Origin: an uncultured Opitutales bacterium
Lineage (GTDB): Bacteria > Verrucomicrobiota > Verrucomicrobiia > Opitutales > Intestinicryptomonadaceae
Assembly: GCA_934660865.1 (NCBI GenBank)
Contig: CAKUIA010000014.1
Coordinates: forward strand, 30,001-62,000
DNA length: 32,000 nucleotides
Direction of reading: 5' to 3'
The translations under genes were made by a program, and so were the position numbers. The notes under the pieces were generated by a model, which was not told the origin of the DNA, did not search any database, and saw only the letters and a program-made list of their open reading frames with translations. Positions 5,289-31,490 of this stretch are shown piece after piece (position 1 is the first letter of the stretch; every line of letters starts with the position of its first letter).

Positions 5289-6524
5289 TTAAAGCTTGTC
5301 GATTGTAATCGTTTCGGGCTTTTTCTTCATATCGGGAATTTCGTAGGCGTATTTTAGCATTGCCGATTCCATTATGGAGCGCAAGCCGCGCGCGCCAGTT
5401 TTAAGCTCAATGGCCTTTTCGGCTATGTCGTTTACGGCCTTTTCGGTAAACTCAAGCTTAATACCGTCGTAGGCAAACAGTTTTTTATACTGCTTAATAA
5501 GCGAGTTTTTTGTAGACGTAAGTATGTTTACTAAATCCGCCTTTTTAAGCTCGTTTAACGCGCACACAACGGGAAGCCTGCCTATAAATTCGGGTATAAA
5601 GCCGAATTTTACAAGGTCTTCGGGCTGTATTTGCGACGACAACAACTCGCCGTTTGCGTTGTCGCTTTCGCTTTCCTGCGAAAAGCCCATCGACGAATTT
5701 TTCGTGCGCCTGTCTACAATGTCTTTAAGGCCAACAAACGCGCCGCCGCATATGAACAAGATATTGCGGGTGTCTACCCTAATGTATTCCTGGTCGGGGT
5801 GCTTGCGGCCGCCCTTTGGGGGAATGTTGCAAACCGAGCCTTCCAAAATCTTTAGCAGTGCCTGCTGCACGCCTTCGCCGCCTACGTCTCGCGTAATCGA
5901 AACGTTTTCCATCTTGCGGGCGATTTTGTCGATTTCGTCTACGTAAATTATGCCGCGCTGCGCCTTTTCTATGTCGAAATTTGCGGCTCTTAAAAGGTTT
6001 AGCACAATGTTTTCGACGTCTTCGCCTACGTAGCCCGCTTCGGTAACATTTGTGGCGTCGGCAATGGCGAAGGGCACATTAAGCATTTTCGCCAAAGTTC
6101 TGGCCAAATAGGTTTTGCCCGAGCCTGTCGGGCCTACAAGCAGAATGTTGCTTTTTTCAACTTCAACGTCTTTTAAGTCTTTTAAAAGCTGGCTGTTTGA
6201 ATCGGCGCTTTTTATGCGCTTGTAGTGGTTGTATACCGCAACGCTAAGCACGCGTTTTGCGTCGTCTTGGCCTACAACGTATTCGTCAAGCTTGGCCTTC
6301 ATTTGCGAGGGCGTGGGCAGCTTGAAGTTTTTGTCGTCGAAAGGCGAGGGGCTTTGGTTTAGCTCGGGGTTGTCTTTAAGCTTGAACATATCGCTTAAAG
6401 CCGCAACGCAGTCGGAGCATATAAAAGCCTTGTTAGCCCCGCGAACCATATTTTTTACCTGGTCGGCGGGTCTGCCGCAAAAACTGCACCTAATGTCTTT
6501 TATGTCGGGACCTTTTTTGTCCAT
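5289..6524 (-). CDS. clpX: ATP-dependent Clp protease ATP-binding subunit ClpX
   Basis: N-terminal zinc-binding CSFCGR...CSDC. Walker A is [11 protein letters not shown]+ and C-terminal motifs are present. It lies immediately downstream of clpP. Confidence 0.97.
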
Positions 6525-7118
6525 TTAGCGTTTGTTTGGCTGGATAACCTTGTCGATTATGCCGTATTTGCATGCGTCGTCGGCGCTCATAAAAAAGTCT
6601 CTGTCCGAGTCTTTTTCAAGCTGGGCAACCGATTTGCCGGTGTTTTCGGCCAAGATTTCGTTAATGGTTTTTCTCCAACGCAAAATTTCGTTGGCCATAA
6701 TCGTTATGTCCGAAGCCTGGCCGCCCGCGCCGCCCGATGGCTGGTGAATCATAACCGTAGAGTGGGGCAGCGCAAAACGCTTGCCCTTTGTGCCGGCCGA
6801 AAGCAGCACCGTTCCCATGCTTGCCGCCAAACCCACGCAGTAGGTAACAACGTCGCACTTAAGGAAATTCATTGTATCCAATATGGCCATACCCGCCGTT
6901 ATGGAACCCCCCGGGCAATTTATGTATAAATTAACGTCCTTTTTTGGGTCTTCCATCTGAAGAAAAAGCAACTGGGCGACAACGGCGTTTGCCACATAGT
7001 CGTCTATGGGCGTGCCTATGAAAATAATCCTGTCCTTTAAAAGACGCGAATATATGTCCCAAGTTTTTTCGCTTCTGCCGTCTCTTTCGTAGACGTACGG
7101 TATTGGATAGTAGCTCAT
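6525..7118 (-). CDS. clpP: ATP-dependent Clp protease proteolytic subunit ClpP
   Basis: Catalytic contexts GLAASMG (Ser) and MIHQP (His). Typical 197-aa length. The tig-clpP-clpX synteny is conserved. Confidence 0.97.
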
Positions 7119-7146
7119 ATTAAATATATTGTGAAATGTTAAAATT

Positions 7147-7174
7147 GCCCCCCGATTTTTAATTTCGGGAGGCG
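7147..7174 (-). terminator. Hairpin between tig and clpP (possible partial terminator or attenuator)
   Basis: On the minus strand: CCUCCCGA-loop-UCGGGGGG (8 bp including one G-U), followed by CAAUUUU. The U-tract is short, so this is at best a weak terminator. Confidence 0.4.
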
Positions 7175-7181
7175 TTTTAAA

Positions 7182-8492
7182 TTACTTGGCTTCCTTGATT
7201 TTAACTTCGGCCTTTTCGGCTATAAAGTTAATGGTTTTTTGCATAAGGGCGTCGCCTCTGATTCTGTTTATCAGGGCTTGGTTGCCTCTTAGCCTCTTTA
7301 CAAATTCGTCGGGTTTCATGCCCGCGCGAACCGCTTCCTGCCAAACAACGCGGCTAATGTCTTCGTTGTTAACCTCTATTTTGTTGGCCTTTGCAACGCG
7401 CGAAAGGAAAATCCTCATTTTCGCCCTTATTTCGGCGTCTTTTGTGGCGCCTTCAATCAAAGAGTCTTTGTTCTTTTCGAGAACGTCTTTTGTTACGCCC
7501 TGTTGCATATAGCGCATCATTGTTTCCGACAAGATTGCGTCTCTTTCTTCGGCTACAGCGCTTTCGGGAAGGGCAAATTCAACCTTTTCCATAAGCTGGT
7601 TTACGGCCTTTTCGCGCTTTAGCACTTCGTTGTATTGGGTCTTTTCCTTTTCGATGTCGGCTGCAACCTTTTCGCGCAAAGCCTGTTCGGATTCAACCTT
7701 CAAAGTCTTGCAAAATTCTTCGTCGAATTTGGGCAATACCTTTTCCTTTACGTCTAAAACTTCAACATCGTAAACGGCTTTTTTGCCGGCCAATTCCTTT
7801 ATTGCAAAGTCTGCTGCAAAGGTTTCTTCGGCCTGCTTTTTGTCGCCCTTTTTCATGCCGACAAGGGCGTTTACAACGGCCTTAACGCCGGGGGCGTTTT
7901 CGTTGCCGGCTTCTTCCCAAGTGGATTTTTGCGTGCCGTACATTGTGGCATTGGGCACAATTTCAGACACCAATTTGCCGTCTATCTTGCCTTCGTACGA
8001 AACGTTTACAAAGTCGCCTTTTTTAACTTCGCGGTCTACGCTTTCGAATTTGGCATACTGGTTTTGGTAGTATTCCATAACCTTGTCTACCTCTTCGTTT
8101 GCGGCCTTTGTGTTGTCGAGCTCTACCGAGGTTTTAAGCTCGGCGGGAACTTTTACTTCGGGGTATACGTCTACCGTAATTTCGATTTCGGCGCCGTTTT
8201 CGCCCACCTGGGGCTTTGCGTCTACAACCGAGAAAATGTCGAATTCCTTGATGTCGTTAAGGGCTTGTATGGCCTTTTGGAAAAGCTGTCTTTCGGTAGA
8301 GGCGGCAATGTCTTTTTCGAACTTCTTTACCACCATTGCGGCGGGAGCTTTGCCTCTTCTAAAACCCTGGATTGTGGCGTTTTTTACAAAGTCGGCTGTA
8401 ACGGCCTGTTTTTCTTTTGCAGTTTCTGCACCGTCGAAAGAAACTAATACCTTCTTTCTGGTGTCGTTTATTTTTTCTATTTTTGTGTTCAT
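7182..8492 (-). CDS. tig: Trigger factor (ribosome-associated PPIase chaperone)
   Basis: 436 aa. The N-terminal ribosome-binding region contains GFRRGKAP. There is a central FKBP-like segment and an acidic helical C-terminus. It lies upstream of clpP-clpX. Confidence 0.95.
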   Translation of the reverse strand: MNTKIEKINDTRKKVLVSFDGAETAKEKQAVTADFVKNATIQGFRRGKAPAAMVVKKFEKDIAASTERQLFQKAIQALNDIKEFDIFSVVDAKPQVGENGAEIEITVDVYPEVKVPAELKTSVELDNTKAANEEVDKVMEYYQNQYAKFESVDREVKKGDFVNVSYEGKIDGKLVSEIVPNATMYGTQKSTWEEAGNENAPGVKAVVNALVGMKKGDKKQAEETFAADFAIKELAGKKAVYDVEVLDVKEKVLPKFDEEFCKTLKVESEQALREKVAADIEKEKTQYNEVLKREKAVNQLMEKVEFALPESAVAEERDAILSETMMRYMQQGVTKDVLEKNKDSLIEGATKDAEIRAKMRIFLSRVAKANKIEVNNEDISRVVWQEAVRAGMKPDEFVKRLRGNQALINRIRGDALMQKTINFIAEKAEVKIKEAK

Positions 8493-14276: not shown

Positions 14277-15989
14277 CTATGCCACGGGTTTTGCGGCGGG
14301 CTTTACTTTTGCCGAATCCACTTTGGGGATTTTGTCGTAAAAGTTTGAGGCGCGCTCTACAATGTTAAAGAGGTTCTTCGAAATTTTGCGCATGGCTTCA
14401 AGCAATTCCAAATATAAAATGCCGACTTCGGGGCGGCATTTGCCGTTTTTAATGCGCTCCATATGCTCGGTTTCAAGGCGGCTTAGAGTGTCTACAATGT
14501 CGCTTCTAAACATATCCGAAATCTTTTGGGCGTCGGGGGTTTTCTTTTCCAAAAGCGAAATCGAAAATTCCGCCAATGCGTTAAGTTTTTGGCAGATTTG
14601 GTTGAACTCGTTTTCGGCTTCGGCGCTGAAAGAATATTTGTTTTTAAGCATTCTTTCCATTACAGAATGTATTACAAAGGTAAGGTCGCCTATACGTTCG
14701 GCGTCGTTGGTGCAGTGCAAAAGAACGGGTATTTGCTCGGCCTCGTTTTGGGTAAGGTTCTTTTGCATTAGCTTGGCGAGATATTCTGTAATGTCTTTTT
14801 GGCGAATGTCTACGTCGTTTTCGCGCTCTTCAAGCTGGGCAACCATGCTTTTGTTGCGGTCGTCGTTTTGGTTGTACATTTTCAATGTGCAGTCTACCAT
14901 CTTCCACGACTTTTTAAGCATTTTGCGCAACGCCCCCGCAGTTTGCGCCAAGGCTATGGAGGGCGCGTTTAAGAAGTGCGGTTCCAGCCTCTGGTATTTT
15001 ACCTTTTCCTCCCTTACGGGCACAATCTTTTCGCAAATTCTCGCCAATAGGGGAATAAATGGGATTAAAATTATGGTTGTGCAAACATTGAAAATTGTGT
15101 GCGCGTTTGCAATTTCGCGGGGAACATCGCCAGCCTTGCACGACATTTTTACAATTTTAAAGAAAATGGGATCGCCCGAAACGGGAATGTAAAGACTTGC
15201 CACAACAGCGCAAACGCCCACAACATTGAATAGTGTATGTGCCATTGCCGCCTGTTTTGCAACGCGGTTTGCGGGAATTGCCGCAATTTGTGCCGTTACC
15301 GTGCTGCCTATGTTGCTGCCGAAAACAATGGCCGTTGCCGTATAGATATCTATTAAACCGCTGGCACCCAAAGCCACAACTATGCCCGAACATGCCGAAG
15401 AGCTTTGTATTATCAGGGTTGCAACCAAGCCTATGCCTATTGCGCCGATAAGCGAGAAAAACGGAATGTGCCCGTTTTCGGGCATACACTGGAAAGTTTG
15501 GAACACCGCCATAAAGCTTGGGTTGTCGGAAAGCGACTTAAGGTCGTTCGACATTATCTGCATGCCGAAAAACAAAAAGCCCAAGCCTATAATTGTTTCG
15601 CTCCAGTTGCGAATTGCCGGCTTGGGTATAAAGCTTACAACTAAACCCAGCGTGATTGCGGGCATAATAATCCAGCTAATGTCGAAGGCTACAAGCTGGG
15701 CGGTAATTGTTGTACCTATGTTGGCTCCGAATATAATGCCTATTGCCTGAACCAAACTTAATAGGCCTGCGTTTACAAAACCTATAACCATAACCGTTGT
15801 GGCGCTAGACGACTGTATTACCGCCGTAACCGTAGCTCCCGTAAGGATTGCCACATATTTGTTCGACGAAAACAGCCCTAAAATTGTGCGCATTTTTTCG
15901 CCCGCAACGGTGTTTAAGCCGTCGCTCATCATTTTCATTCCGAGAATGAAAATAGCCAAACCTCCGATAACGTTAAGTATCAATTCCAT
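14277..15989 (-). CDS. Na+/phosphate cotransporter family protein (NptA/YjbB-like) with C-terminal PhoU-like region
   Basis: Two Na_Pi_cotrans repeats carry QSSSATT and QSSSACS. A helical, charged C-terminal half of about 220 aa follows, typical of the PhoU-like domains fused in this family. Confidence 0.9.
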   Translation of the reverse strand: MELILNVIGGLAIFILGMKMMSDGLNTVAGEKMRTILGLFSSNKYVAILTGATVTAVIQSSSATTVMVIGFVNAGLLSLVQAIGIIFGANIGTTITAQLVAFDISWIIMPAITLGLVVSFIPKPAIRNWSETIIGLGFLFFGMQIMSNDLKSLSDNPSFMAVFQTFQCMPENGHIPFFSLIGAIGIGLVATLIIQSSSACSGIVVALGASGLIDIYTATAIVFGSNIGSTVTAQIAAIPANRVAKQAAMAHTLFNVVGVCAVVASLYIPVSGDPIFFKIVKMSCKAGDVPREIANAHTIFNVCTTIILIPFIPLLARICEKIVPVREEKVKYQRLEPHFLNAPSIALAQTAGALRKMLKKSWKMVDCTLKMYNQNDDRNKSMVAQLEERENDVDIRQKDITEYLAKLMQKNLTQNEAEQIPVLLHCTNDAERIGDLTFVIHSVMERMLKNKYSFSAEAENEFNQICQKLNALAEFSISLLEKKTPDAQKISDMFRSDIVDTLSRLETEHMERIKNGKCRPEVGILYLELLEAMRKISKNLFNIVERASNFYDKIPKVDSAKVKPAAKPVA

Positions 15990-21214: not shown

Positions 21215-22141
21215 ATGAAACTTGATTTTCTAAGAAAAATATTCTCGTATAAGGTTGTAGACGAGCACATAAAATTGTGCGTGTTGGGCGTGCATGCAAA
21301 TATCAGGCAAAAGGTTAAAATACAAACGCCCAAAATCACCCAAAGCGGCGTAAGCGGTTTGCAAAAAACAAAAGGACGCATAATATGCTCGCTAACCAGC
21401 ATTCCCCAAAGGATAGACATGGTAGATATTGTCGTTGCGCGCCTGCTTAACCAAACCCTTAAGCCTGATATGGTTGTTTTGTATTTGGCAAGCGACGAAT
21501 TCCCCGAAGGCGAAAAATCTTTGCCCGAAAAGCTGCTGGCTTTAAAACGGTTCGGCCTTACCGTTAAATTCTGCAAAAACTATAAGTCGTACAAAAAGCT
21601 TATTCCCGCTTTAATGGAATTTCCCGACGACTATATAATAACTTTCGACGACGACATTTTGTACGACTTTGACGCGGTTGAAAATTTGTGGAAAAGCTCG
21701 CAGGCAAACCCCAACTGCGTGTGCTGCTACCGCACCGGGCGCATAAAGCTTGTAAACGGCGCAATTTCGCCCATATCGAACAACGTTTTGATTTGGAACC
21801 ACCCGAACGACGCAACCTATAAAAACGTTATAATGAGCGGAACGGGAACGCTGTTTCCGCCGCACAGCCTTTATAAAGACATCTTAAACGAAGATATTTT
21901 TATGAAGCTTATGGCTTCGAACGACGAGATTTTCTTTTGGGCAATGGCCGTTTTAAACGGAACGAAAATTGTAAATACAAAGGGCTTTAACTATAAGTGC
22001 ATACTTATAAGGCAGCAGCAAAAAGTGGCGCTAAGCCAAATAAACGTTGCGGGCAGCTCGAAGGGCATAGACGGCAAGTCGGCATTGCTGCTTATGGCGA
22101 AAACGTATCCCAAAATTATGGAAATTTTGGAAAACGAATAG
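21215..22141 (+). CDS. Putative glycosyltransferase (family not determined)
   Basis: SLTSIPQRI...LLNQT followed by ITFDDDILYD (DxD-like). It lies in an operon with the two GT8 genes. The assignment rests on motif and context only. Confidence 0.6.
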   Translation: MKLDFLRKIFSYKVVDEHIKLCVLGVHANIRQKVKIQTPKITQSGVSGLQKTKGRIICSLTSIPQRIDMVDIVVARLLNQTLKPDMVVLYLASDEFPEGEKSLPEKLLALKRFGLTVKFCKNYKSYKKLIPALMEFPDDYIITFDDDILYDFDAVENLWKSSQANPNCVCCYRTGRIKLVNGAISPISNNVLIWNHPNDATYKNVIMSGTGTLFPPHSLYKDILNEDIFMKLMASNDEIFFWAMAVLNGTKIVNTKGFNYKCILIRQQQKVALSQINVAGSSKGIDGKSALLLMAKTYPKIMEILENE

Positions 22142-22153
22142 AAATTTTTTCAC

Positions 22154-22197
22154 AAAAAACGGCGCAAACATTAAACTTTGCGCCGTTTTTTTGTTTT
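22154..22197. terminator. Bidirectional Rho-independent terminator between convergent operons
   Basis: Perfect 11-bp stem AACGGCGCAAA (22158-22168) / TTTGCGCCGTT (22177-22187). An A-run lies upstream and a T-run downstream. Confidence 0.8.
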
Positions 22198-22214
22198 AAG
22201 ATGTTTTTAACCGT

Positions 22215-22523
22215 TTACGCTGCAGGTTGCGCCTTGGGGGCTGCGCTGCGCGATTTTTTCGCCTTTGCCTTGGGCTTTTCGTCTTGGGCCTGTTCCTTTG
22301 CGGCAAGCTCCCTTTCGGCGATAAGGTCTTCAATCTTTTCCTTCATCGAGGCAAGTTCTTCAATCGACATAGAGTCGAGAGCCTTGTTTTCGTTTACGGG
22401 AATGTCCATACCGTGCGAACGCAAAATATCGTCTATCTTATTTTGGTTCTTCTTGTATAGATAGAAGCCCGTTGCGGCCAAACCTACGCCCAAAGCGGCG
22501 CCCAATATATAATCTCTTGTCAT
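22215..22523 (-). CDS. YtxH-like small membrane-anchored coiled-coil protein (last gene of the ATPase operon)
   Basis: The N-terminal glycine-zipper helix is ILGAALGVGLAATGFYLY. An acidic helical segment follows, then a Lys/Ala/Pro-rich basic tail. It starts 25 nt downstream of the ATPase stop and is followed by the terminator. Confidence 0.65.
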   Translation of the reverse strand: MTRDYILGAALGVGLAATGFYLYKKNQNKIDDILRSHGMDIPVNENKALDSMSIEELASMKEKIEDLIAERELAAKEQAQDEKPKAKAKKSRSAAPKAQPAA

Positions 22524-22548
22524 AATAGTTTTCCTTTCGTGAAAAAAT

Positions 22549-24777
22549 TTATTTTAGAGTAGGTGCTTTCTCCATATCATAAAAGAGTATTCGCAGAGAA
22601 TTTGCAACAACTAAAATTGTGGACGAATTGTGCATTACGGCCCCGAATATTACCGGTATTGTGCCCAAAGCCCCCAACGCCAGGCCGAGAGTGTTTATGC
22701 CCACCGAGGCGTACAGGTTTTGGCGCACAATGTCCATTGTGTATTTCGAAAGGCCGTATATGCCCGGCAGCATAAGCGCGTTGTCGCCGGCAATGGTTAT
22801 GTCGGCGGCCTCCATTGCCGCGTCGGTGCGGGTTTTGCCAAGTGCTATGCCGACATCGGCGTAGGCAAGGGCGGGGGCGTCGTTAATTCCGTCGCCAACC
22901 ATAACAACCTTGTTGCCGCGCGACTGCATTCTGAGAACCACCTTTGCCTTGTCTTCGGGCAAAAGCTCGTATTCGTAGCTGTCTACGCCGAGCCTGCGGG
23001 CAACTACGTCGGCTTGCTGCTCCAAGTCGCCCGTAAGAAGAACAATGTCGTCTACGCCGACGGTGCGCAGGCGGTTTAGCGCCTTTTTCATATTCTCGCG
23101 CAAGGGGTCTCTTATGCCTATCAAGCCCGCAATTTCGTTGCCTTTCGAAACATAGACAACGTTTTCGCCCTTCGCAAAAAGCGCCGAGGCCTGGTCGCGC
23201 ATGGGGTGGGTGTGTATGCCGCATTCGTTTAAAAAGCGCTTGTTGCCCACGCGTATTATTGCTCCGTTTGCGGTTGTGTATACGCCGCGGCCGACAACGG
23301 TTTCTATGTCGCCGTGGCGCGGAATTGCGATAATGTCGCGCCGGGCCTTTGCAAGAATTGCCGAAGCCATCGGGTGCTTTGACGTTTCTTCGGCGGCGGC
23401 CGCAAACGAAACAACTTCGTTTTGCGAGAATTTGCCCGAAAGGGGAACAACGCTTTCAACCTGCGGTTTGCCCTCGGTAAGCGTTCCGGTTTTGTCCAAA
23501 ATCAAGGTATCGGCATGGCTCATGGCCTCTATTACGCCGCTTCCCTTTATAAGCACGCCCTGGCGCGCCGCGGTGTTTATAGCCGCCGAAAGGGCGGCCG
23601 CCGTGGAAAGCTTTATGCCGCAAGAATAGTCTATTATAAGCATATTAAGCGCCCTGTTTACATCGCGCGTTATGGCATATACCAGGCCCGAAAGGAATAT
23701 GTTTAGCGGAACTAGCGCCGACGAAAACTTGTCGGCATAGTTTTGCACAAGGGCTTTTTTGCCGCCTGCGTCTTCTACCATCTTTATTATTTTCGAAACC
23801 GTAGTGTCGGCCCCTGCAGATTCAGCTATGCAGGTAATTGTGCCGTCTACAACAAGCGTTCCCGCAAAAACTTTGCCGCCTTTTTCGCGCGAAACGGGTT
23901 CGAATTCGCCCGTAATCGAGGCCTGGTTTATAACGGCGCGCCCCGAAAGAACAACGCCGTCGGCGCAAATCTTTTCGCCCGAATGGACTACTATTATGTC
24001 GCCTTTTTTAAGCTCTTTTGCCGAAATTTTTTGCAGCGGGTTGCCTATTTTGTTGTTGTAGGGGTGCCAAACGGTTTCGTTTTCGACCGAAAGCATATCC
24101 CTTATGGCGTTTCGCGTGCGGTTCATTGTGTAAACCGTCATGGATTCGGCAAAATCGTGCAAAAACAAAACCGTCAACGCCGAAGCCGCCTTGCCCGACA
24201 ATACGCTTGAAAGCACCGCCAACGCGCTTAGCGTGTCGGCATTGGGCAGCATGGAGCGCTTAAAGGCCTTTAAGCCGCTTTTAAACAAAGGCAGCGCCAG
24301 CGACATTGCTCCTATGCCGGGGAACCCGAAAAGCCTGCCCCTTAAAGTTGCGGGCACGGGCGACTTTAAAAGCCATACTCCCAAAAGCATTGCAGCCGAA
24401 ACCGCGCTGCGCGTTATCAGCGTAGAAAGCGGTTCTTCGTGCAGGTCTCGCTCCTGAACAAGGAGCTTGTTTTGCTCTTCGCGCTCCCTTTGCAAAATGC
24501 CGAGCGAGTGCGCCGCAACGATTTCCTCTACCGACACCAAAAGGCGTTTCGAGTCGTTTTTGGATTCGTCGTATACAATGACAAGCGATTTTGCATAGGG
24601 GTTTATCCTTGCCGAAATTACGCCCTCTAAAAGCTTGAAGTGGCCCGCCAAATGCTCTTTGTCTTCGCCGGTTCCCACATATTTAAACGCGTTGCAGGTT
24701 ATCCTTACACGCCCCGAAATTTCGTGCGCAATAGAGCACTTTAAAAGGGGTTTTTTGTTTTTCGAGAAAAACGACAT
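22549..24777 (-). CDS. Atypical P1B-type (heavy-metal) P-type ATPase with a Cys-less HMA-like N-terminal domain; candidate FezB-like
   Basis: Standard motifs are DKTGTLT, the actuator ITGE, the P1B nucleotide-domain SKHP, and GDGINDAPAL. About 8 TM helices. The transmembrane metal site reads IDYSCGIKL (Ser-Cys-Gly, nt 23617-23625) instead of CPC. The last TM reads MHNSST. The N-terminus has HEISGRVRI and no CxxC. Confidence 0.92.
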   Translation of the reverse strand: MSFFSKNKKPLLKCSIAHEISGRVRITCNAFKYVGTGEDKEHLAGHFKLLEGVISARINPYAKSLVIVYDESKNDSKRLLVSVEEIVAAHSLGILQREREEQNKLLVQERDLHEEPLSTLITRSAVSAAMLLGVWLLKSPVPATLRGRLFGFPGIGAMSLALPLFKSGLKAFKRSMLPNADTLSALAVLSSVLSGKAASALTVLFLHDFAESMTVYTMNRTRNAIRDMLSVENETVWHPYNNKIGNPLQKISAKELKKGDIIVVHSGEKICADGVVLSGRAVINQASITGEFEPVSREKGGKVFAGTLVVDGTITCIAESAGADTTVSKIIKMVEDAGGKKALVQNYADKFSSALVPLNIFLSGLVYAITRDVNRALNMLIIDYSCGIKLSTAAALSAAINTAARQGVLIKGSGVIEAMSHADTLILDKTGTLTEGKPQVESVVPLSGKFSQNEVVSFAAAAEETSKHPMASAILAKARRDIIAIPRHGDIETVVGRGVYTTANGAIIRVGNKRFLNECGIHTHPMRDQASALFAKGENVVYVSKGNEIAGLIGIRDPLRENMKKALNRLRTVGVDDIVLLTGDLEQQADVVARRLGVDSYEYELLPEDKAKVVLRMQSRGNKVVMVGDGINDAPALAYADVGIALGKTRTDAAMEAADITIAGDNALMLPGIYGLSKYTMDIVRQNLYASVGINTLGLALGALGTIPVIFGAVMHNSSTILVVANSLRILFYDMEKAPTLK

Positions 24778-24780
24778 TTT

Positions 24781-25146
24781 TTAGCCTAATTTTGAAAGTT
24801 TTTCGCAAATATCGGCAACAAGCCTGCGCTCGTCGTCGGCGGTTTGGGTTGTCTTTAAAGCGTCTAAAACCGTTTGCCAGGCGGTGTCTATCCAGCCGGT
24901 TATTTCGCTTTCGGTTATGTTTTTCGGAACATACTCTATCAGAACATTGCCCGTATACTGGTTTAGCGAAACGCCGCTTATTCCCTTTTTAGACTTTAGC
25001 ACGCCGATTAGCGCGTCGGCATATTCGGCTACATATTCGGGGTTGTTTTTAAGCCCCCAAATATTTATCCTTAGCCTGCCAGGCATACTGTGTACGATTT
25101 TGGGCTTGCCAAGAAGTTTTACGAAAGTTTTTTGTATGGAGTTCAT
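24781..25146 (-). CDS. Small soluble protein with a Cys-less HMA-like (H-x-x-P-G-R-x-R) domain
   Basis: IVHSMPGRLRINIWGL...GISGVSLNQYTGNVLIEY is paralogous to the ATPase N-terminus and to the upstream gene. The ATG at 25146 overlaps the upstream stop as ATGA. An alternative ATG at 25179 would overlap the upstream gene by 37 nt. The stop lies 3 nt from the ATPase start. Confidence 0.7.
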   Translation of the reverse strand: MNSIQKTFVKLLGKPKIVHSMPGRLRINIWGLKNNPEYVAEYADALIGVLKSKKGISGVSLNQYTGNVLIEYVPKNITESEITGWIDTAWQTVLDALKTTQTADDERRLVADICEKLSKLG

Positions 25147-25721
25147 TTGTTGTGCGATACGCTTTGAAATAGCCACCATATAAGGTTTATCGGAAAATAT
25201 GTTTGCGAGGCCTGCAAGCCCAGTTTTCTTCTTACAACGGGAATGGATTTTACAAGCTGGAACACCAAAAGCAGCGTAATTGCAGCCCTGATGTCCAGTA
25301 TGCCCTTTGTGCGGCTAAGCATTGCCTGGTTAAGCGCAAAACCTATGGTAGAAAGCTCTTTGGCCAAAATGGATTTTCTCGCCCGCATTTCGCCTTCAAA
25401 GTTAAAGCAATACGTCAGCGCAGAAACCACTATTGTAGGCGACAAAACCGCGCTGTCGTATTCTATCAAAAATGTTCCCAACAAAACGTTTGCCGAAATT
25501 TTTTTAACGCCGCGCACGGGCGACATTGCCTTTACTATGTTGTCGGCCAAAACGGGCACGCCCTTTGTGGACGGAATTTTCACCCTTATTCTGCCGGATA
25601 TTGAATGGACAACCTCCAACACGCCCGCAAAAGAGGGCGGTTTTTGCGCCAGCATAACGGGCAAAGCGTCGGTGTTGCTGCAACTTTTAAAAATTTCCAT
25701 AATGTTTCTGATTATCGCCAT
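25143..25721 (-). CDS. Protein with an N-terminal Cys-less HMA-like domain and a hydrophobic/amphipathic C-terminal region (first gene of the operon)
   Basis: VVHSISGRIRVKIP...GVKKISANVLLGTFLIEYD is followed by AAITLLLVFQLV..RRK..LIWWLF. The start is ambiguous: TTG 25739, ATG 25721 or ATG 25700. The promoter and Fur-box-like geometry would favour 25700. Confidence 0.65.
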   Translation of the reverse strand: MAIIRNIMEIFKSCSNTDALPVMLAQKPPSFAGVLEVVHSISGRIRVKIPSTKGVPVLADNIVKAMSPVRGVKKISANVLLGTFLIEYDSAVLSPTIVVSALTYCFNFEGEMRARKSILAKELSTIGFALNQAMLSRTKGILDIRAAITLLLVFQLVKSIPVVRRKLGLQASQTYFPINLIWWLFQSVSHNK

Positions 25722-25739
25722 AACTTTTTTTAGGGTCAA
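25698..25739 (-). promoter_or_regulatory. Promoter candidate P2 overlapped by a Fur-box-like palindrome
   Basis: Minus strand reads TTGACC (25739-25734), a 17-nt spacer, then GATAAT (25716-25711). GATAATCAGAAACATTATG (25716-25698) matches 15/19 positions of the classical GATAATGATAATCATTATC box (my count). It covers the -10 and ends on the ATG at 25700. Confidence 0.35.
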
Positions 25740-25771
25740 GAGTAGATATTGTTAAAAATTTTTTAATTGTT

Positions 25772-25799
25772 AGTTTATTCTAACTTTTTTTATTGTCAA
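25772..25799 (-). promoter_or_regulatory. Promoter candidate P1 of the ATPase operon
   Basis: Minus strand reads TTGACA (25799-25794), a 16-nt spacer, then TAAACT (25777-25772). It lies within the upstream copy of a 20-bp direct repeat. Confidence 0.3.
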
Positions 25800-25818
25800 G
25801 GGGCAAAGTTTGTTTTTC

Positions 25819-27596: not shown

Positions 27597-28115
27597 ATGA
27601 AAATTTCTACCAAAACGGGAGACGCGGGCAAAACAAAGCTTATGTTCGGCAAAAGCGTTTTTAAAAACTCGCCGAGGGTATGCGCATACGGCGCGGTAGA
27701 CGACCTGTCGGCAACGCTGGGTTTTGCGCGCTCTTTTGCCGGCAAAGAAACGGCCGAATTTATCCTAAAAATACAAAAATCGCTTGTGTTTTTAATGACC
27801 GAACTTGCAACCGCAAACGAAGATTTTGGCAAACTTAAAGAGCATAAAATCCGCCTATTGGACGAAAGCGATTTAAAGCTTTTTGAGGACAAAATTCAGG
27901 CGGCCGAAGATAACGGCAACCTGTTTAATTCTTGGACATATTCGGGCGAGAGCCATTTGCAGGCGGCTTTGGATATGGCGCGCACGCGCTGCAGATTTGC
28001 CGAAAGGGAAATTGTTGCCCTTGCAAATTCGGAGGGTTTGGCAAGGGATTTCCCTTTAAAATATATAAACAGGCTTTCGGATTTGCTTTGGATTTTGTCG
28101 CAGGAGGCAAAATAG
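27597..28115 (+). CDS. pduO: PduO-type ATP:cob(I)alamin adenosyltransferase
   Basis: MKISTKTGDAGKT..., PRVCAYGAVDDLSA, a SGES...AL..ART.CR.AER-type segment, and INRLSDLLW. It is colinear with PduO/MMAB-type adenosyltransferases as I recall them. Confidence 0.92.
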   Translation: MKISTKTGDAGKTKLMFGKSVFKNSPRVCAYGAVDDLSATLGFARSFAGKETAEFILKIQKSLVFLMTELATANEDFGKLKEHKIRLLDESDLKLFEDKIQAAEDNGNLFNSWTYSGESHLQAALDMARTRCRFAEREIVALANSEGLARDFPLKYINRLSDLLWILSQEAK

Positions 28116-28366: not shown

Positions 28367-29458
28367 ATGGATACAACAAATACAAAAAAGGAAACCGCAC
28401 CTGCCGTTTCGGCAGGACGTATGAACAAGAGGGGCTTTTTTAAGACTCTCGGTATTGGAACTGCCGCCATTATGGGGGCTCCCTATGTAATGGGTGCGGC
28501 CAAAAAGCCCATAAAGTGGCGCATGCAAACGTATGCAAGCACGTCGTTGGGCGCGCATGTAATTAAACCGGCCGTAGACGCATTCAACAAAATCGCCAAC
28601 GGCGAAATGAAAATAGAGTTGTATTACGCCGACCAGTTAGTGCCCACTAGCGAGTTGTTTAGCGCACTGCAACAAGGCACTTTAGACTGCGTACAAAGCG
28701 ACGACGATTCCATGGGTTCCCCCGCAGACGTTGCTCCCTTTAGCGCATATTTCCCGCTGGCTACACGCTATTCGCTAGATGTTCCCGCCTTGTTCAACGA
28801 ATTCGGTTTGGGCAAGCTTTGGGCGGAATCGTATAAAGAGGTTAAAAATGTAACCTGGCTAAGCTCGGGCTCGTGGGACCCTTGCAACTTTATTACAAAA
28901 GACCCCATTCGCTCGCTTGCCGACATTAAGGGCAAAAAGCTTTATACTTTCCCGACGGCAGGCCGCTTTTTAACGCGCTTTGGCATAGTTCCGGTTACAA
29001 TTCCCGTAGAAGACATTGAAATGGCAATGCGCACGGGCGAGCTAGACGGCGTTGTATGGTGCGGCATAACGGAGGCATACACGGTAGGGTGGTCGAACGC
29101 GACAAACTACTTTTTAACAAACAATATTTCGGGCGCTTGGATTGGCTCGTTTTTGGCGAACACAAAGTCGTGGGCAAAGGTGCCGCCGCACCTGCAAGAA
29201 TTGTTTAAAGTTTGCATGGACTATTCGCACTACTACCGCCAATACTGGTATTGGGGCGGCGAGGCCAACCTGCGCGTAAACGGCGGCAAGCTAAAGCTTA
29301 CAACCATTCCCGCCGAAGAATGGAAGCTTGTGGAAAGCGAAGCCGTAAAGTTTTGGGACGAGCTAATAGCAAAAGGCACTCCGCGCCAAAAACAGGTTGT
29401 AAAAATATTGCGCGACTACAACGCAATGATGGAAAAGGCGGGTTCTCCGTACAGATAA
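28367..29458 (+). CDS. dctP: TRAP transporter substrate-binding protein (DctP family)
   Basis: Tat/Sec-like signal (NKRGFFKTLGIGTAAIMGAP...GAA). The mature N-terminus begins KWRMQTY..., with a typical two-lobe SBP length. The Q and M genes follow. An alternative start at 28421 (MNKRGFF...) is possible. Confidence 0.88.
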   Translation: MDTTNTKKETAPAVSAGRMNKRGFFKTLGIGTAAIMGAPYVMGAAKKPIKWRMQTYASTSLGAHVIKPAVDAFNKIANGEMKIELYYADQLVPTSELFSALQQGTLDCVQSDDDSMGSPADVAPFSAYFPLATRYSLDVPALFNEFGLGKLWAESYKEVKNVTWLSSGSWDPCNFITKDPIRSLADIKGKKLYTFPTAGRFLTRFGIVPVTIPVEDIEMAMRTGELDGVVWCGITEAYTVGWSNATNYFLTNNISGAWIGSFLANTKSWAKVPPHLQELFKVCMDYSHYYRQYWYWGGEANLRVNGGKLKLTTIPAEEWKLVESEAVKFWDELIAKGTPRQKQVVKILRDYNAMMEKAGSPYR

Positions 29459-29480
29459 AATCCGCTTTATAAGGGCTATG

Positions 29481-29524
29481 GCCCGCCGCCGTTTGCAGAC
29501 AAAATTTGCGTTTCGGCGGCGGGC
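29481..29524 (+). other. GC-rich intercistronic stem-loop between dctP and dctQ
   Basis: Perfect 11-bp stem GCCCGCCGCCG (29481-29491) / CGGCGGCGGGC (29514-29524) with a 22-nt loop. A T6 run starts 10 nt downstream. Confidence 0.6.
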
Positions 29525-29566
29525 ATGCCACGTGTTTTTTAACTAAATATATTGGCTGTTTTTTAT

Positions 29567-30163
29567 ATGATTATCAGAAGAACAAGATTCGACGATTTGG
29601 ACGAATGGCTTGATTCTGTCGATTGGCACAAGGTTGGCGAAAAGATGGGAGCGCCCATTTTAAGGCTGATGCGCGTGTATATAAAATATGTCGGCAAATT
29701 AAGCGAATTTGTAGGAGCAGGGGCTATGTATCTGCTTTTGGCAATGATGGGCATATTGCTGTATTCTATTGTTACAAACGCATTTCACCGCCCCGAAATT
29801 TGGGTTATGGAAATGGCGCAGTTTACAATGGCCGCCTACTATATTTTGGGCGGGGCAAGCAGCCTAAAACACGGCATACATGTTAGAATGGACTTTCTAT
29901 ACGAGCGCTGGAAGCCGCGAACCAAGGCTTTGGTAGACGTATTTACCGTGTTCTTTTTGCTGTTTTACCTGTACATAATGGTAAAGGGCGGCTACGACAG
30001 CTCGGCCTTTGCGCTGGAATTCGACCAACGCAACCACAGTGTTTGGAAGCCCCCAATGGCTCCCATTAAGATAATAATGACTTCGGGCATGGCGTTGATG
30101 TTTTTGCAAGCTACGGCCGAATTGTTGAAGGACTTTTGCTACGCAATAGGAAGGAAGTATTAA
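29567..30163 (+). CDS. dctQ: TRAP transporter small permease (DctQ family)
   Basis: Four hydrophobic helices in DctQ-like order. It lies immediately upstream of dctM (1-nt gap). The start is uncertain: TTG 29552, ATG 29567 or ATG 29645. Confidence 0.8.
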   Translation: MIIRRTRFDDLDEWLDSVDWHKVGEKMGAPILRLMRVYIKYVGKLSEFVGAGAMYLLLAMMGILLYSIVTNAFHRPEIWVMEMAQFTMAAYYILGGASSLKHGIHVRMDFLYERWKPRTKALVDVFTVFFLLFYLYIMVKGGYDSSAFALEFDQRNHSVWKPPMAPIKIIMTSGMALMFLQATAELLKDFCYAIGRKY

Positions 30164-30164
30164 A

Positions 30165-31490
30165 ATGTCTCCTGCAATGATAATTTTGTTGATGTTTTCG
30201 ACGCTAATGCTGCTTATGCTTACAGGCCAAAGGGTGTTTGCGGCGATGGGCTTTGTGGGCGTGGCGGCCGCCCTGCTTTTGTGGGGCGACGGCAGCACGG
30301 CGTTGGGTTTTAACGCCGCCATAAAGCTGTTTAACTGGTACCCAATGCTAACTTTGCCATTGTTCGTATTTATGGGCTTTATGCTTTCGGAATCGGGCAT
30401 TGCAAACGATATGTACCACATGTTCCATGTTTGGATGGGCTCGCTAAAAGGCGGCTTGGCCGTGGGCACATTGTTTGTAATGGTGCTAATTTCCTGCATG
30501 AACGGCCTTAGCGTTGCGGGCATGGCCATTGGCTGTAGTGTGGCGCTGCCCGAACTGTTAAAGCGCAATTACGACAAGCGCATGATTAGCGGCCTTATAC
30601 AAGCGGGCAGCTCGTTGGGCATTTTAATACCGCCAAGCATAGTTTTGGTTTTGTACGGTATGATAGCCCGCCAACCGGTAAGCCAACTTTGGCTTGCGGG
30701 CATAGGCCCGGGGCTGTTGATGACGGGCTTGTTTTTGGCGTATATTCTAATTAGGTGCCACTTTAACCCGAAAATGGGCCCGGTGCTTCCAAAAAGCGAG
30801 CGCAACTATACGTTAAAGGAAAAGCTAAAGGTTTTAAGCGCGGGCATAATTCCGCTTTTGCTGATATTTTCGGTTATAGGTTCGTTTTTCTTCGGGCTTA
30901 CAAGCTTGGTGGAAAGCTCGGCATTCGGCGCGTTTGCCGCGTTTTTGGTGGCGCTGTTTCGCCGCAGGCTTTCGTGGAGGCTGTTTAGGAAAATATTGCG
31001 CGAAACTTTGGACAACTCGGCAATGTTTATGTGGGTTATGATGGCAGCCCTCGCTTTTGCCGCCGTGTTCGACGGCCTTGGCGCAGTTAGAGCCCTGGAG
31101 GGATTGTTCCTTAACGACTGGGGTTTGTCGCCGTGGCAAGTGCTGCTTTTAATGCAATTATCGTTCGTAATATTGGGCATATTTTTGGACGATACCGCAA
31201 TGCTTGTAATAGTTGCACCCTTGTACATACCTTTGGTTATAAAGCTTGGCTTTAACCCGATATGGTTCGGCATACTATATACAATCACCTGCCAAATTGC
31301 ATATATAACCCCGCCTTTCGGCTACAATCTGTTCCTCATGCGCGCGATGTCGCCCAAGAGCATAACGATAAGGGATATATACGCCTCGATAATTCCCTTT
31401 GTAGGTCTTATGCTGCTGGCTTTGGTTCTTATAATGATATTCCCCGAAATAGCATTGTGGATACCGTCGCTGTTCAACACCAAAATGTAG
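30165..31490 (+). CDS. dctM: TRAP transporter large permease (DctM family)
   Basis: 441 aa, about 12 TM helices, DctM-like sequence throughout (for example GLSVAGMAIG, AGSSLGILIPPS, ITPPFGYNLF). Confidence 0.93.
   Translation: MSPAMIILLMFSTLMLLMLTGQRVFAAMGFVGVAAALLLWGDGSTALGFNAAIKLFNWYPMLTLPLFVFMGFMLSESGIANDMYHMFHVWMGSLKGGLAVGTLFVMVLISCMNGLSVAGMAIGCSVALPELLKRNYDKRMISGLIQAGSSLGILIPPSIVLVLYGMIARQPVSQLWLAGIGPGLLMTGLFLAYILIRCHFNPKMGPVLPKSERNYTLKEKLKVLSAGIIPLLLIFSVIGSFFFGLTSLVESSAFGAFAAFLVALFRRRLSWRLFRKILRETLDNSAMFMWVMMAALAFAAVFDGLGAVRALEGLFLNDWGLSPWQVLLLMQLSFVILGIFLDDTAMLVIVAPLYIPLVIKLGFNPIWFGILYTITCQIAYITPPFGYNLFLMRAMSPKSITIRDIYASIIPFVGLMLLALVLIMIFPEIALWIPSLFNTKM

Follow-up and report, generated by a model that had tools for sequence, protein, structure and literature searches.

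Ferrosomes are among the few known lipid-bounded bacterial organelles, and they aid gut colonisation by Clostridioides difficile. An operon in an uncultured Opitutales bacterium raises the question of whether it encodes a system of this kind. It lies on the minus strand at positions 22215-25739 of the window, by which we mean the whole stretch of 32,000 nucleotides analysed here (contig CAKUIA010000014.1, positions 30,001 to 62,000). It consists of four packed, co-oriented genes: g1, g2, a P1B-type ATPase gene and g4. An initial annotation had read it as a cluster like the fez clusters that make ferrosomes, with an ATPase that might belong to the FezB (P1B-6) group. Judged from its sequence, the operon is a member of an already catalogued clade that is sister to FezB, here called the SCG clade, and it is present in a reduced four-gene form.

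The ATPase gene (22549..24777, minus strand) encodes a 742-residue P1B-type protein of the D[Y/F]SCG clade. Its catalytic core is complete as translated, with the motifs DKTGT, HP and GDGIND intact. Transmembrane helix 4 (TM4) reads DYSCGIK where CPC is expected, which confirms that the protein lacks a CPC site. TM6 reads HNSST, and the N-terminal motif GRVRI lies within HEISGRVRITCN. The combination of D[YF]SCG, HNxxT and GRxR was present in 68/68 close relatives. The TM5 Asn and the TM6 HN..T (the N-x20-HN stretch) align column for column with the FezB-group ATPase of Azospirillum. In this alignment the putative ligands common to the two proteins are D, S and C of TM4, N of TM5, and H, N and T of TM6. 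The N-terminus gave a borderline match to Pfam HMA_2 (4.6e-7, 30.3 bits, gathering score 30), and the remainder is E1-E2_ATPase and Hydrolase.

FezB (P1B-6) is described by Grant et al. (2020 preprint; Nature 2022) as having D[Y/F]SCA in TM4, HNxxT in TM6 and frequently RxR at the N-terminus, and reviews likewise give the P1B-6 TM4 motif as "SCA". We compared 146 ATPases over 570 core columns in a neighbor-joining tree, a simple distance method, with 100 bootstraps. The input comprised the window protein, the ATPases of the fetched loci (numbered L), the plasmid copy of Azospirillum brasilense (L079) and 131 representatives of the 50%-identity clusters nearest to the query. The FezB clade was anchored by the D[YF]SCA representatives and by L079, whose motif strings match those in the table of Grant et al. 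for A. brasilense Az39; the FezB proteins of D. magneticus, S. putrefaciens, R. palustris and C. difficile are absent from the tree.

A supergroup of R-rich ATPases was recovered with a bootstrap of 81, and CopA/ZntA-like sequences fell outside it. Nesting among CopA, ZntA or CoaT had been named beforehand as an outcome that would speak against a fez-like system, and the window ATPase does not nest there. The FezB (SCA) clade formed without the window protein at a bootstrap of 98 and was joined at 92 by a Cys-less "GTG" clade. The window ATPase falls within an SCG core (86-99), which is held by a D[YF]xCG clade (92). The D[YF]xCG clade and the FezB plus GTG clade are sisters at a bootstrap of 73. 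CtpC-like and FezH-like groups formed separate branches. The suggested FezB/P1B-6 membership was thus not upheld: the protein has DYSCGIK instead of D[Y/F]SCA and is placed in the sister clade.

The motif group itself is not new. In the part of Table S1 of Grant et al. examined here, the FezB colour group includes C. difficile (DFSCALK), R. palustris (DYSCALK) and Akkermansia (DYSCAIK). A separately coloured "pink" group in the same part holds about 40 R-rich proteins with D[YF][SVIAC]CG and HNxxT. Its listed members include C. kluyveri CKL_1140, C. botulinum/sporogenes, Intestinibacter bartlettii, Fusobacterium nucleatum, Leptotrichia, Bacillus megaterium and C. acetireducens CLAOCE_12990. 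This C. acetireducens protein comes from our locus L034 and is 50% identical to the window ATPase. The window strings coincide with pink-group strings, for example those of CKL_1140 (DYSCGIK/HNSST). The proposal that the group might have gone unexamined at the level of the lineage therefore fails, as the group is already in this table; among the pink-group rows examined there is no member from Verrucomicrobiota, Lentisphaerota or Kiritimatiellota.

Two other kinds of protein were noticed during this comparison. The clade of R-rich P1B ATPases that joins FezB at 92 is Cys-less in TM4, with D[YF]GTG or DYNTN there and SNGSA/NNGST in TM6 (P0187, P0212, P0220, P0224, P0226, P0227, P0246 and P0255). 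Such a ligand set is unusual, and we found no earlier description of it. The representatives P0145, P0165, P0169, P0186 and P0188 are 1550-1706 amino acids long and matched in 3-4 separate stretches, and they look like P1B ATPases fused in tandem.

According to Grant et al., fez clusters also encode hydrophobic GxxxG proteins and R-rich soluble or membrane proteins. Proteins of corresponding plan accompany the window ATPase. The upstream gene g1 (25143..25721, minus strand) encodes 192 amino acids from the ATG at 25721. An alternative TTG start at 25739 extends the open reading frame (ORF) to 25143-25739; the ATG is favoured because the 92%-identical homologue P0344 is also 192 amino acids long. 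The product matches the entire 154-position model of Pfam HMA_2 (PF19991; 8e-30, 104.2 bits). It has the R-rich strand GRIRVKIP and a C-terminal pair of hydrophobic helices with a hydropathy peak at 150-168. The AlphaFold2 model has strands and helices in the order E28-34 (beta0), E37-41, H49-59, E65-71, E76-81 and H88-96 at a pLDDT of 80-93, followed by low-confidence helices. When this model was searched with Foldseek, HMA domains of MerP, ATP7B, CopP and PacS were found at a root-mean-square deviation (rmsd) of 1.3-1.8. The whole model gave weak E-values because its C-terminal helices are of low confidence. RNA polymerase subunit L was ranked at the top of the Foldseek matches and was discounted for its high rmsd. 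A sequence search of the PDB with g1 returned marginal HMA matches alone (E 0.4-0.8).

The second gene, g2 (24781..25146, minus strand), encodes a soluble protein with a weaker match to HMA_2 (8e-10, 39.3 bits), the motif PGRLRINI and no hydrophobic segment. HMA_2 corresponds to the CoBaHMA domain, an HMA fold to which a beta0 strand is added and which has a conserved basic patch (Gaschignard et al. 2024). An HMA-like domain is thus present in all three upstream products, as the initial annotation had claimed. Its description of these domains as cysteine-less stands in part: CxxC is absent from all three, but the ATPase domain has C14 and C28 and g1 has C111. The copies in the pump, in the membrane-anchored g1 and in the soluble g2 diverged anciently. 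Profiles of g1 and g2 match R-rich (FezC-like) ORFs upstream of the Azospirillum FezB-group ATPase at 3e-10 and 3e-11. By plan, g1 appears to be FezC-like and membrane-anchored, and g2 FezD-like and soluble. With the CoBaHMA family these proteins share the beta0 strand, the basic residues and the lack of CxxC, and the helical hairpin fused to the C-terminus of g1 is known from that family too. CoBaHMA and a glycine-zipper membrane protein also occur together at calcyanin loci, which serve intracellular CaCO3 biomineralisation. Calcyanin systems differ in handling Ca carbonate and in having no P-type ATPase, and only the domain and the theme of a basic HMA with a Gly-zipper are common to both.

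The last gene, g4 (22215..22523, minus strand), encodes a single-pass protein of 102 amino acids. Its predicted N-terminal TM helix carries GxxxGxGxxxxG (G8-x3-G12-x-G14). The motif YLYKKNQxKID comes next; it is followed by an acidic amphipathic helix (MSIEEL..KEKIEDLIAERE), and the protein ends in a tail that is basic and disordered. No Pfam family reached its threshold with g4, neither YtxH nor DUF1490 gave a match at E<=1, and 0/73 homologues had a precomputed Pfam domain. The label "YtxH-like" given earlier was therefore an impression of architecture only. A profile hidden Markov model (HMM) of the g4 family matches proteins of Fusobacterium (1e-35) and a 74-amino-acid protein of Priestia pBM400 (3e-13). 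On profile evidence g4 is a family of its own, analogous in plan only to FezA-type proteins and PacL. PacL crosses the membrane once, has GxxG in that helix and contains repeats rich in Glu and Ala as well as a disordered tail; it binds the N-terminal domain of its ATPase (PMC13460109).

The small genes are co-conserved with the ATPase, as had been proposed. The counts are lower bounds from crude ORF calling, and the denominators are loci with enough flanking sequence. Beside the ATPase, g1 was found in 53/60 loci and g4 in 56/65; g2 was found in at least 49/60 and the full trio in at least 43/58, the loci coming from many phyla. This arrangement is far beyond chance. The relative L001 (98% ATPase identity) is from an uncultured Opitutales metagenome-assembled genome of Hadza gut metagenomes. 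ATPases at 61-83% identity come from Opitutales, Victivallales/Lentisphaeria and Kiritimatiellae of human gut and rumen. Those at 44-58% come from Clostridia, Syntrophobacteraceae, Planctomycetota, Calditrichota and others. The Fusobacterium vincentii homologue is 47% identical to the window ATPase and has the same flanking genes; it shares its gene plan with Priestia megaterium pBM400, and RefSeq names the small proteins "HMA2 domain-containing".

The gene order is fixed as g1-g2-ATPase-(x264)-g4. The fifth gene, x264, encodes about 250-275 amino acids (typically about 265), with an R-rich N-terminus HNRVRVKIS that matches HMA_2 weakly. It lies between the ATPase gene and g4 in 25 loci, for example at L034 3532-4359, L080 7206-7958 and L084 10238-11032 and in 22 more. 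All of these are outside the gut and rumen members of the Planctomycetes-Verrucomicrobia-Chlamydiae (PVC) group. Most lineages other than these members encode this third R-rich protein, and no Opitutales, Victivallales or Kiritimatiellae locus in the set has x264. Because it is missing from all gut PVC loci, we regard the window operon as a reduced form, and in this four-gene minimum it differs from the pink group. In three Syntrophobacteraceae clusters a second ATPase of FezH type (ASPCATV / HIFHT / GRMRVKIP) lies downstream of the SCG-type operon (L041 6109-8409, L042 9990-12221 and L045 11191-13425); larger fez clusters likewise have such an ATPase. On a Victivallales contig a reverse transcriptase gene (RVT_1; L085 10694-12073) directly follows g4; it is possibly part of a group II intron or a retron.

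The genes next to relatives of the operon bear on the metal. In Tepidibacter, the series flavodoxin-Fur-FeoA-FeoB-FeoA-FeoA-FeoB is directly upstream of an SCG-type cluster. Five more loci, whose assigned orders or phyla differ, have FeoB next to them. Among the 107 genes that immediately flank the more diverse loci (L037-L071), the top families, with three members each, include FeoB, DtxR-family repressors, generic ABC-transporter, AAA_21 and HMA_2. FeoA, MntP and TonB-dependent receptors have two members each and Nramp has one. Over all relatives, FeoB is a neighbour at 6 loci, Fur at 1 and DtxR-family genes at 3. The DtxR-family genes of three loci and the MntP genes of two are found at L012 8107-8787, L047 2142-2762, L071 4776-5282, L065 8744-9286 and L041 721-1125; in L012, from rumen Lentisphaeria, the DtxR-family gene comes after g4. 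These genes make manganese a candidate for the substrate or the signal. The neighbourhood of fez clusters is likewise linked to iron-homeostasis genes by Grant et al. Since the relatives often adjoin FeoAB, Fur, DtxR-family, MntP or Nramp genes, the operon is likely to handle Fe(II), or possibly Mn(II).

The structure of the operon in the ORF list and the sequence agrees with its first description in junctions, promoter-like sites and terminator. The ATG of g2 overlaps the stop codon of g1 as ATGA; this overlap and the g2 start are fixed because the N-terminus MN(S/P) is conserved in 15 loci. A gap of 3 nt separates the g2 stop from the ATPase gene, and 25 nt separate the ATPase stop from g4. 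Beyond g4 lies an intrinsic terminator that reads on both strands (22154..22191), with a 15-bp stem, 6 G-C pairs and a T-run. Two promoter-like sites of sigma-70 type are on the minus strand: P1 at 25772..25799 (TTGACA-16-TAAACT) and P2 at 25711..25739 (TTGACC-17-GATAAT). P2 overlaps the candidate start codons of g1 and may lie inside the g1 start region.

Upstream of g1 there is an operator-like palindrome, GTTAG-N6-CTAAC (25768..25785), which is conserved in Opitutales. It occurs once per locus and upstream of g1 in 7/8 Opitutales loci, whatever the upstream neighbour (L001 4995-5010, L038 4923-4938, L040 4979-4994 and L048 4920-4935, for example). At L004 and L040 the palindrome takes up the 17-nt spacer that separates TTGAAA/TTGATA from a TATTAT-like -10. 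The window, L001, L002, L038 and L048 each have a TTGACA box upstream of g1, at a variable distance from the palindrome. The palindrome is probably an operator for a dimeric regulator. Its half-sites resemble those of DtxR/IdeR, but the spacing does not, and a scan of all loci for the canonical DtxR/IdeR box gave nothing convincing upstream of g1. CTTGACAATAAAAAAAGTTA and CTTGACCCTAAAAAAAGTTA form an imperfect direct repeat of 20 nt at window positions 25800-25781 and 25740-25721, 60 nt apart. It is also found in L001 and looks like a partial duplication of the promoter and the left half of the palindrome.

The ferrosome genes of C. difficile are repressed by Fur (PMC12574912). In the window, a weak Fur-box-like 19-mer, GATAATCAGAAACATTATG, is present at 25698..25716 on the minus strand and matches the E. 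coli-type consensus at 15/19 positions. It is the only site of at least 15/19 in the 32-kb window, and shuffled sequences gave 0.16 such sites per window. The box upstream of g1 in C. acetireducens matches at 17/19 and was the sole strong one in the scan; that of L001 matches at 14/19.

What might this operon do? Our leading explanation, on which our judgement is evenly poised, is that an SCG-clade operon of fez-like plan encodes an Fe(II) pump with CoBaHMA and g4 partners, ferrosome-like storage being the favoured role. The pump would use ATP to carry Fe(II), or possibly Mn(II), from the cytosol across a membrane. The free CoBaHMA proteins g1 and g2 would act with the CoBaHMA domain of the pump to assemble, target or regulate it, and contacts between CoBaHMA domains, or between CoBaHMA and lipid, could be the means of assembly or regulation. 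The g4 protein would oligomerise through its glycine-rich helix and so scaffold or shape a patch of membrane; FezA has been proposed to have this role, and PacL has been shown to play it with CtpC. The iron would then be sequestered in a membrane-bounded store, with plain export to the periplasm a close second. We favour storage because the sister clade does so and the parts list is the same.

The likeness to fez systems extends over several levels. FezB and the window ATPase have in common HNxxT in TM6, Asn in TM5, D-[YF]-S-C in TM4 and an N-terminal RxR/CoBaHMA domain. Both kinds of cluster encode R-rich partners, one bound to the membrane (g1, GRIRVKIP) and one soluble (g2, GRLRINI), together with a small GxxxG membrane protein (g4). 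Anaerobic hosts, FeoAB, Fur and DtxR neighbours in some SCG relatives and an occasional FezH-type ATPase are also shared. The differences are that TM4 of the window ATPase ends in G and not A, that its clade is a separate and well-supported sister, that g4 is Pfam-less, and that the SCG gene order is fixed. A further mark of FezB is that ferrosome granules of iron phosphate carry it and depend on it. The description of the operon as fez-like thus holds for the R-rich supergroup that contains FezB, the partners of fez plan and the iron-linked relatives, but not for FezB identity or for demonstrable homology of g4.

A serious rival, which we consider possible but somewhat improbable, is an efflux platform in the plasma membrane like the CtpC-PacL "effluxosomes". 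Such a platform would detoxify the cell by exporting excess Mn(II), Zn(II) or Fe(II) and would have no storage organelle, and g4 would be a PacL-like chaperone or scaffold that stabilises the pump through its N-terminus, which resembles a metal-binding domain. In the tree CtpC-like ATPases fall into the R-rich supergroup too, and they also have the TM5 Asn and HNx(S/T). In the CtpC-PacL1 system of M. tuberculosis, as in the window, a P1B-6-like pump lacks CxxC in its N-terminal domain and a small single-pass GxxG partner has a Glu/Ala-rich part and a disordered tail, so that the plan of g4 is that of PacL (PMC13460109). MntP, Nramp and DtxR-family genes are neighbours at some loci, and source databases call the relatives "manganese/zinc-transporting P-type ATPase C". 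However, CtpC has CPC in TM4 where the window has SCG, its metal is Zn/Mn, and the SCG clade groups with FezB and not with the CtpC-like group. PacL belongs to DUF1490 and is encoded upstream of the pump, whereas g4 has no DUF1490/PacL match at E<=1 and lies downstream. The PacL systems described have no free CoBaHMA proteins and hence nothing that corresponds to g1 and g2, and the commonest metal-related neighbour of SCG loci is FeoB, an Fe(II) importer.

A true FezB cluster in the strict sense of Grant et al., and thus a ferrosome cluster proper, is very unlikely, although HNxxT, the R-rich N-terminus, the GxxxG protein and the R-rich partners are all present. We rejected strict FezB/P1B-6 membership because TM4 departs from D[Y/F]SCA, the FezB clade (98) excludes the window, and Grant et al. 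coloured the motif group separately. An ordinary Cu/Zn/Cd/Co resistance pump with unrelated small neighbours is barely credible. The ATPase does match the generic P1B subfamily model TIGR01525 of NCBIfam (521 bits, cut-off 346) as well as the generic TIGR01512, and its nearest solved structures are CopA, sCoaT and ZntA. But the scores for the equivalogs are far under the cut-offs (ZntA 313 versus 1240 and 364 versus 1005; CopA 306 versus 1316), and neither CPC/SPC nor a CxxC domain is present. With CopA-like sequences outside the supergroup in the tree and the small genes co-conserved across phyla, a pump of the CopA/ZntA/CoaT type is effectively refuted. There is also a small chance that SCG clusters specify a second kind of membrane compartment for sequestering metal, with a mechanism different from that of ferrosomes, or that they handle metal in some other way. 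Such a compartment could differ in metal (Mn, for example), mineral or membrane, and its parts would be a P1B-6-like pump, CoBaHMA paralogues and scaffolds of a new Pfam-less GxxxG family. If real, it would occur widely among anaerobes, with Fusobacterium, the C. botulinum/sporogenes group and gut members of Verrucomicrobiota, Lentisphaerota and Kiritimatiellota among its hosts.

Several observations weigh against Fe(II) pumping with ferrosome-like storage. The sister link to FezB has a bootstrap of 73% only, in a simple distance tree. In comparisons with two GxxxG proteins of the Azospirillum FezB cluster, g4 gave no HMM match and an hhalign probability of 2-7%, so that agreement with Fez proteins at the profile level was obtained for g1 and g2 and not for g4. 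Seven Kiritimatiellae-like loci with enough upstream sequence have no g1 or g2 upstream, and three of them also lack g4; the partners are therefore not encoded in cis at every locus. Manganese fits the DtxR-family, MntP and Nramp neighbours as well as iron does. As a set, the gut PVC loci show no metal-related enrichment around them. The window neighbours (GH78, PduO, TRAP transporter, GT8, GT2, GH97, and housekeeping genes beyond) are unrelated to metals. The Fur-like box of the window is not conserved in other Opitutales. In the literature we found no functional study or experiment on any member of the D[Y/F]SCG clade.

A recent review asks whether other commensals and pathogens possess ferrosomes (PMC12574912). 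The sharpened form of this question is whether SCG-clade clusters make them. A sister system made of the same parts occurs in uncultured Opitutales of the gut, in Lentisphaeria and Kiritimatiellae of rumen and gut, and in cultivable Fusobacterium and Clostridium. If the SCG clade stores iron, estimates of ferrosome distribution based on D[Y/F]SCA are undercounts. If it does otherwise, it offers a clean handle on how partners set the function of a pump. The PVC four-gene form is the smallest conserved version seen and is therefore convenient for heterologous expression.

The G+C content is 0.48-0.53 over the operon (window 22001-25000), compared with about 0.41-0.49 in most of the window. Coding bias could account for this, as could a horizontal acquisition in the past. 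Elsewhere the window encodes a Na/Pi cotransporter-PhoU fusion (14277-15989, minus strand), tig-clpP-clpX (5289-8492, minus strand), a PduO-type cobalamin adenosyltransferase (27597-28115, plus strand) and the TRAP transporter DctPQM (28367-31490, plus strand). It is rich in glycoside hydrolases (GH78, GH97 and GH43) and also carries GT8/GT2 genes, as is typical of a gut polysaccharide degrader.

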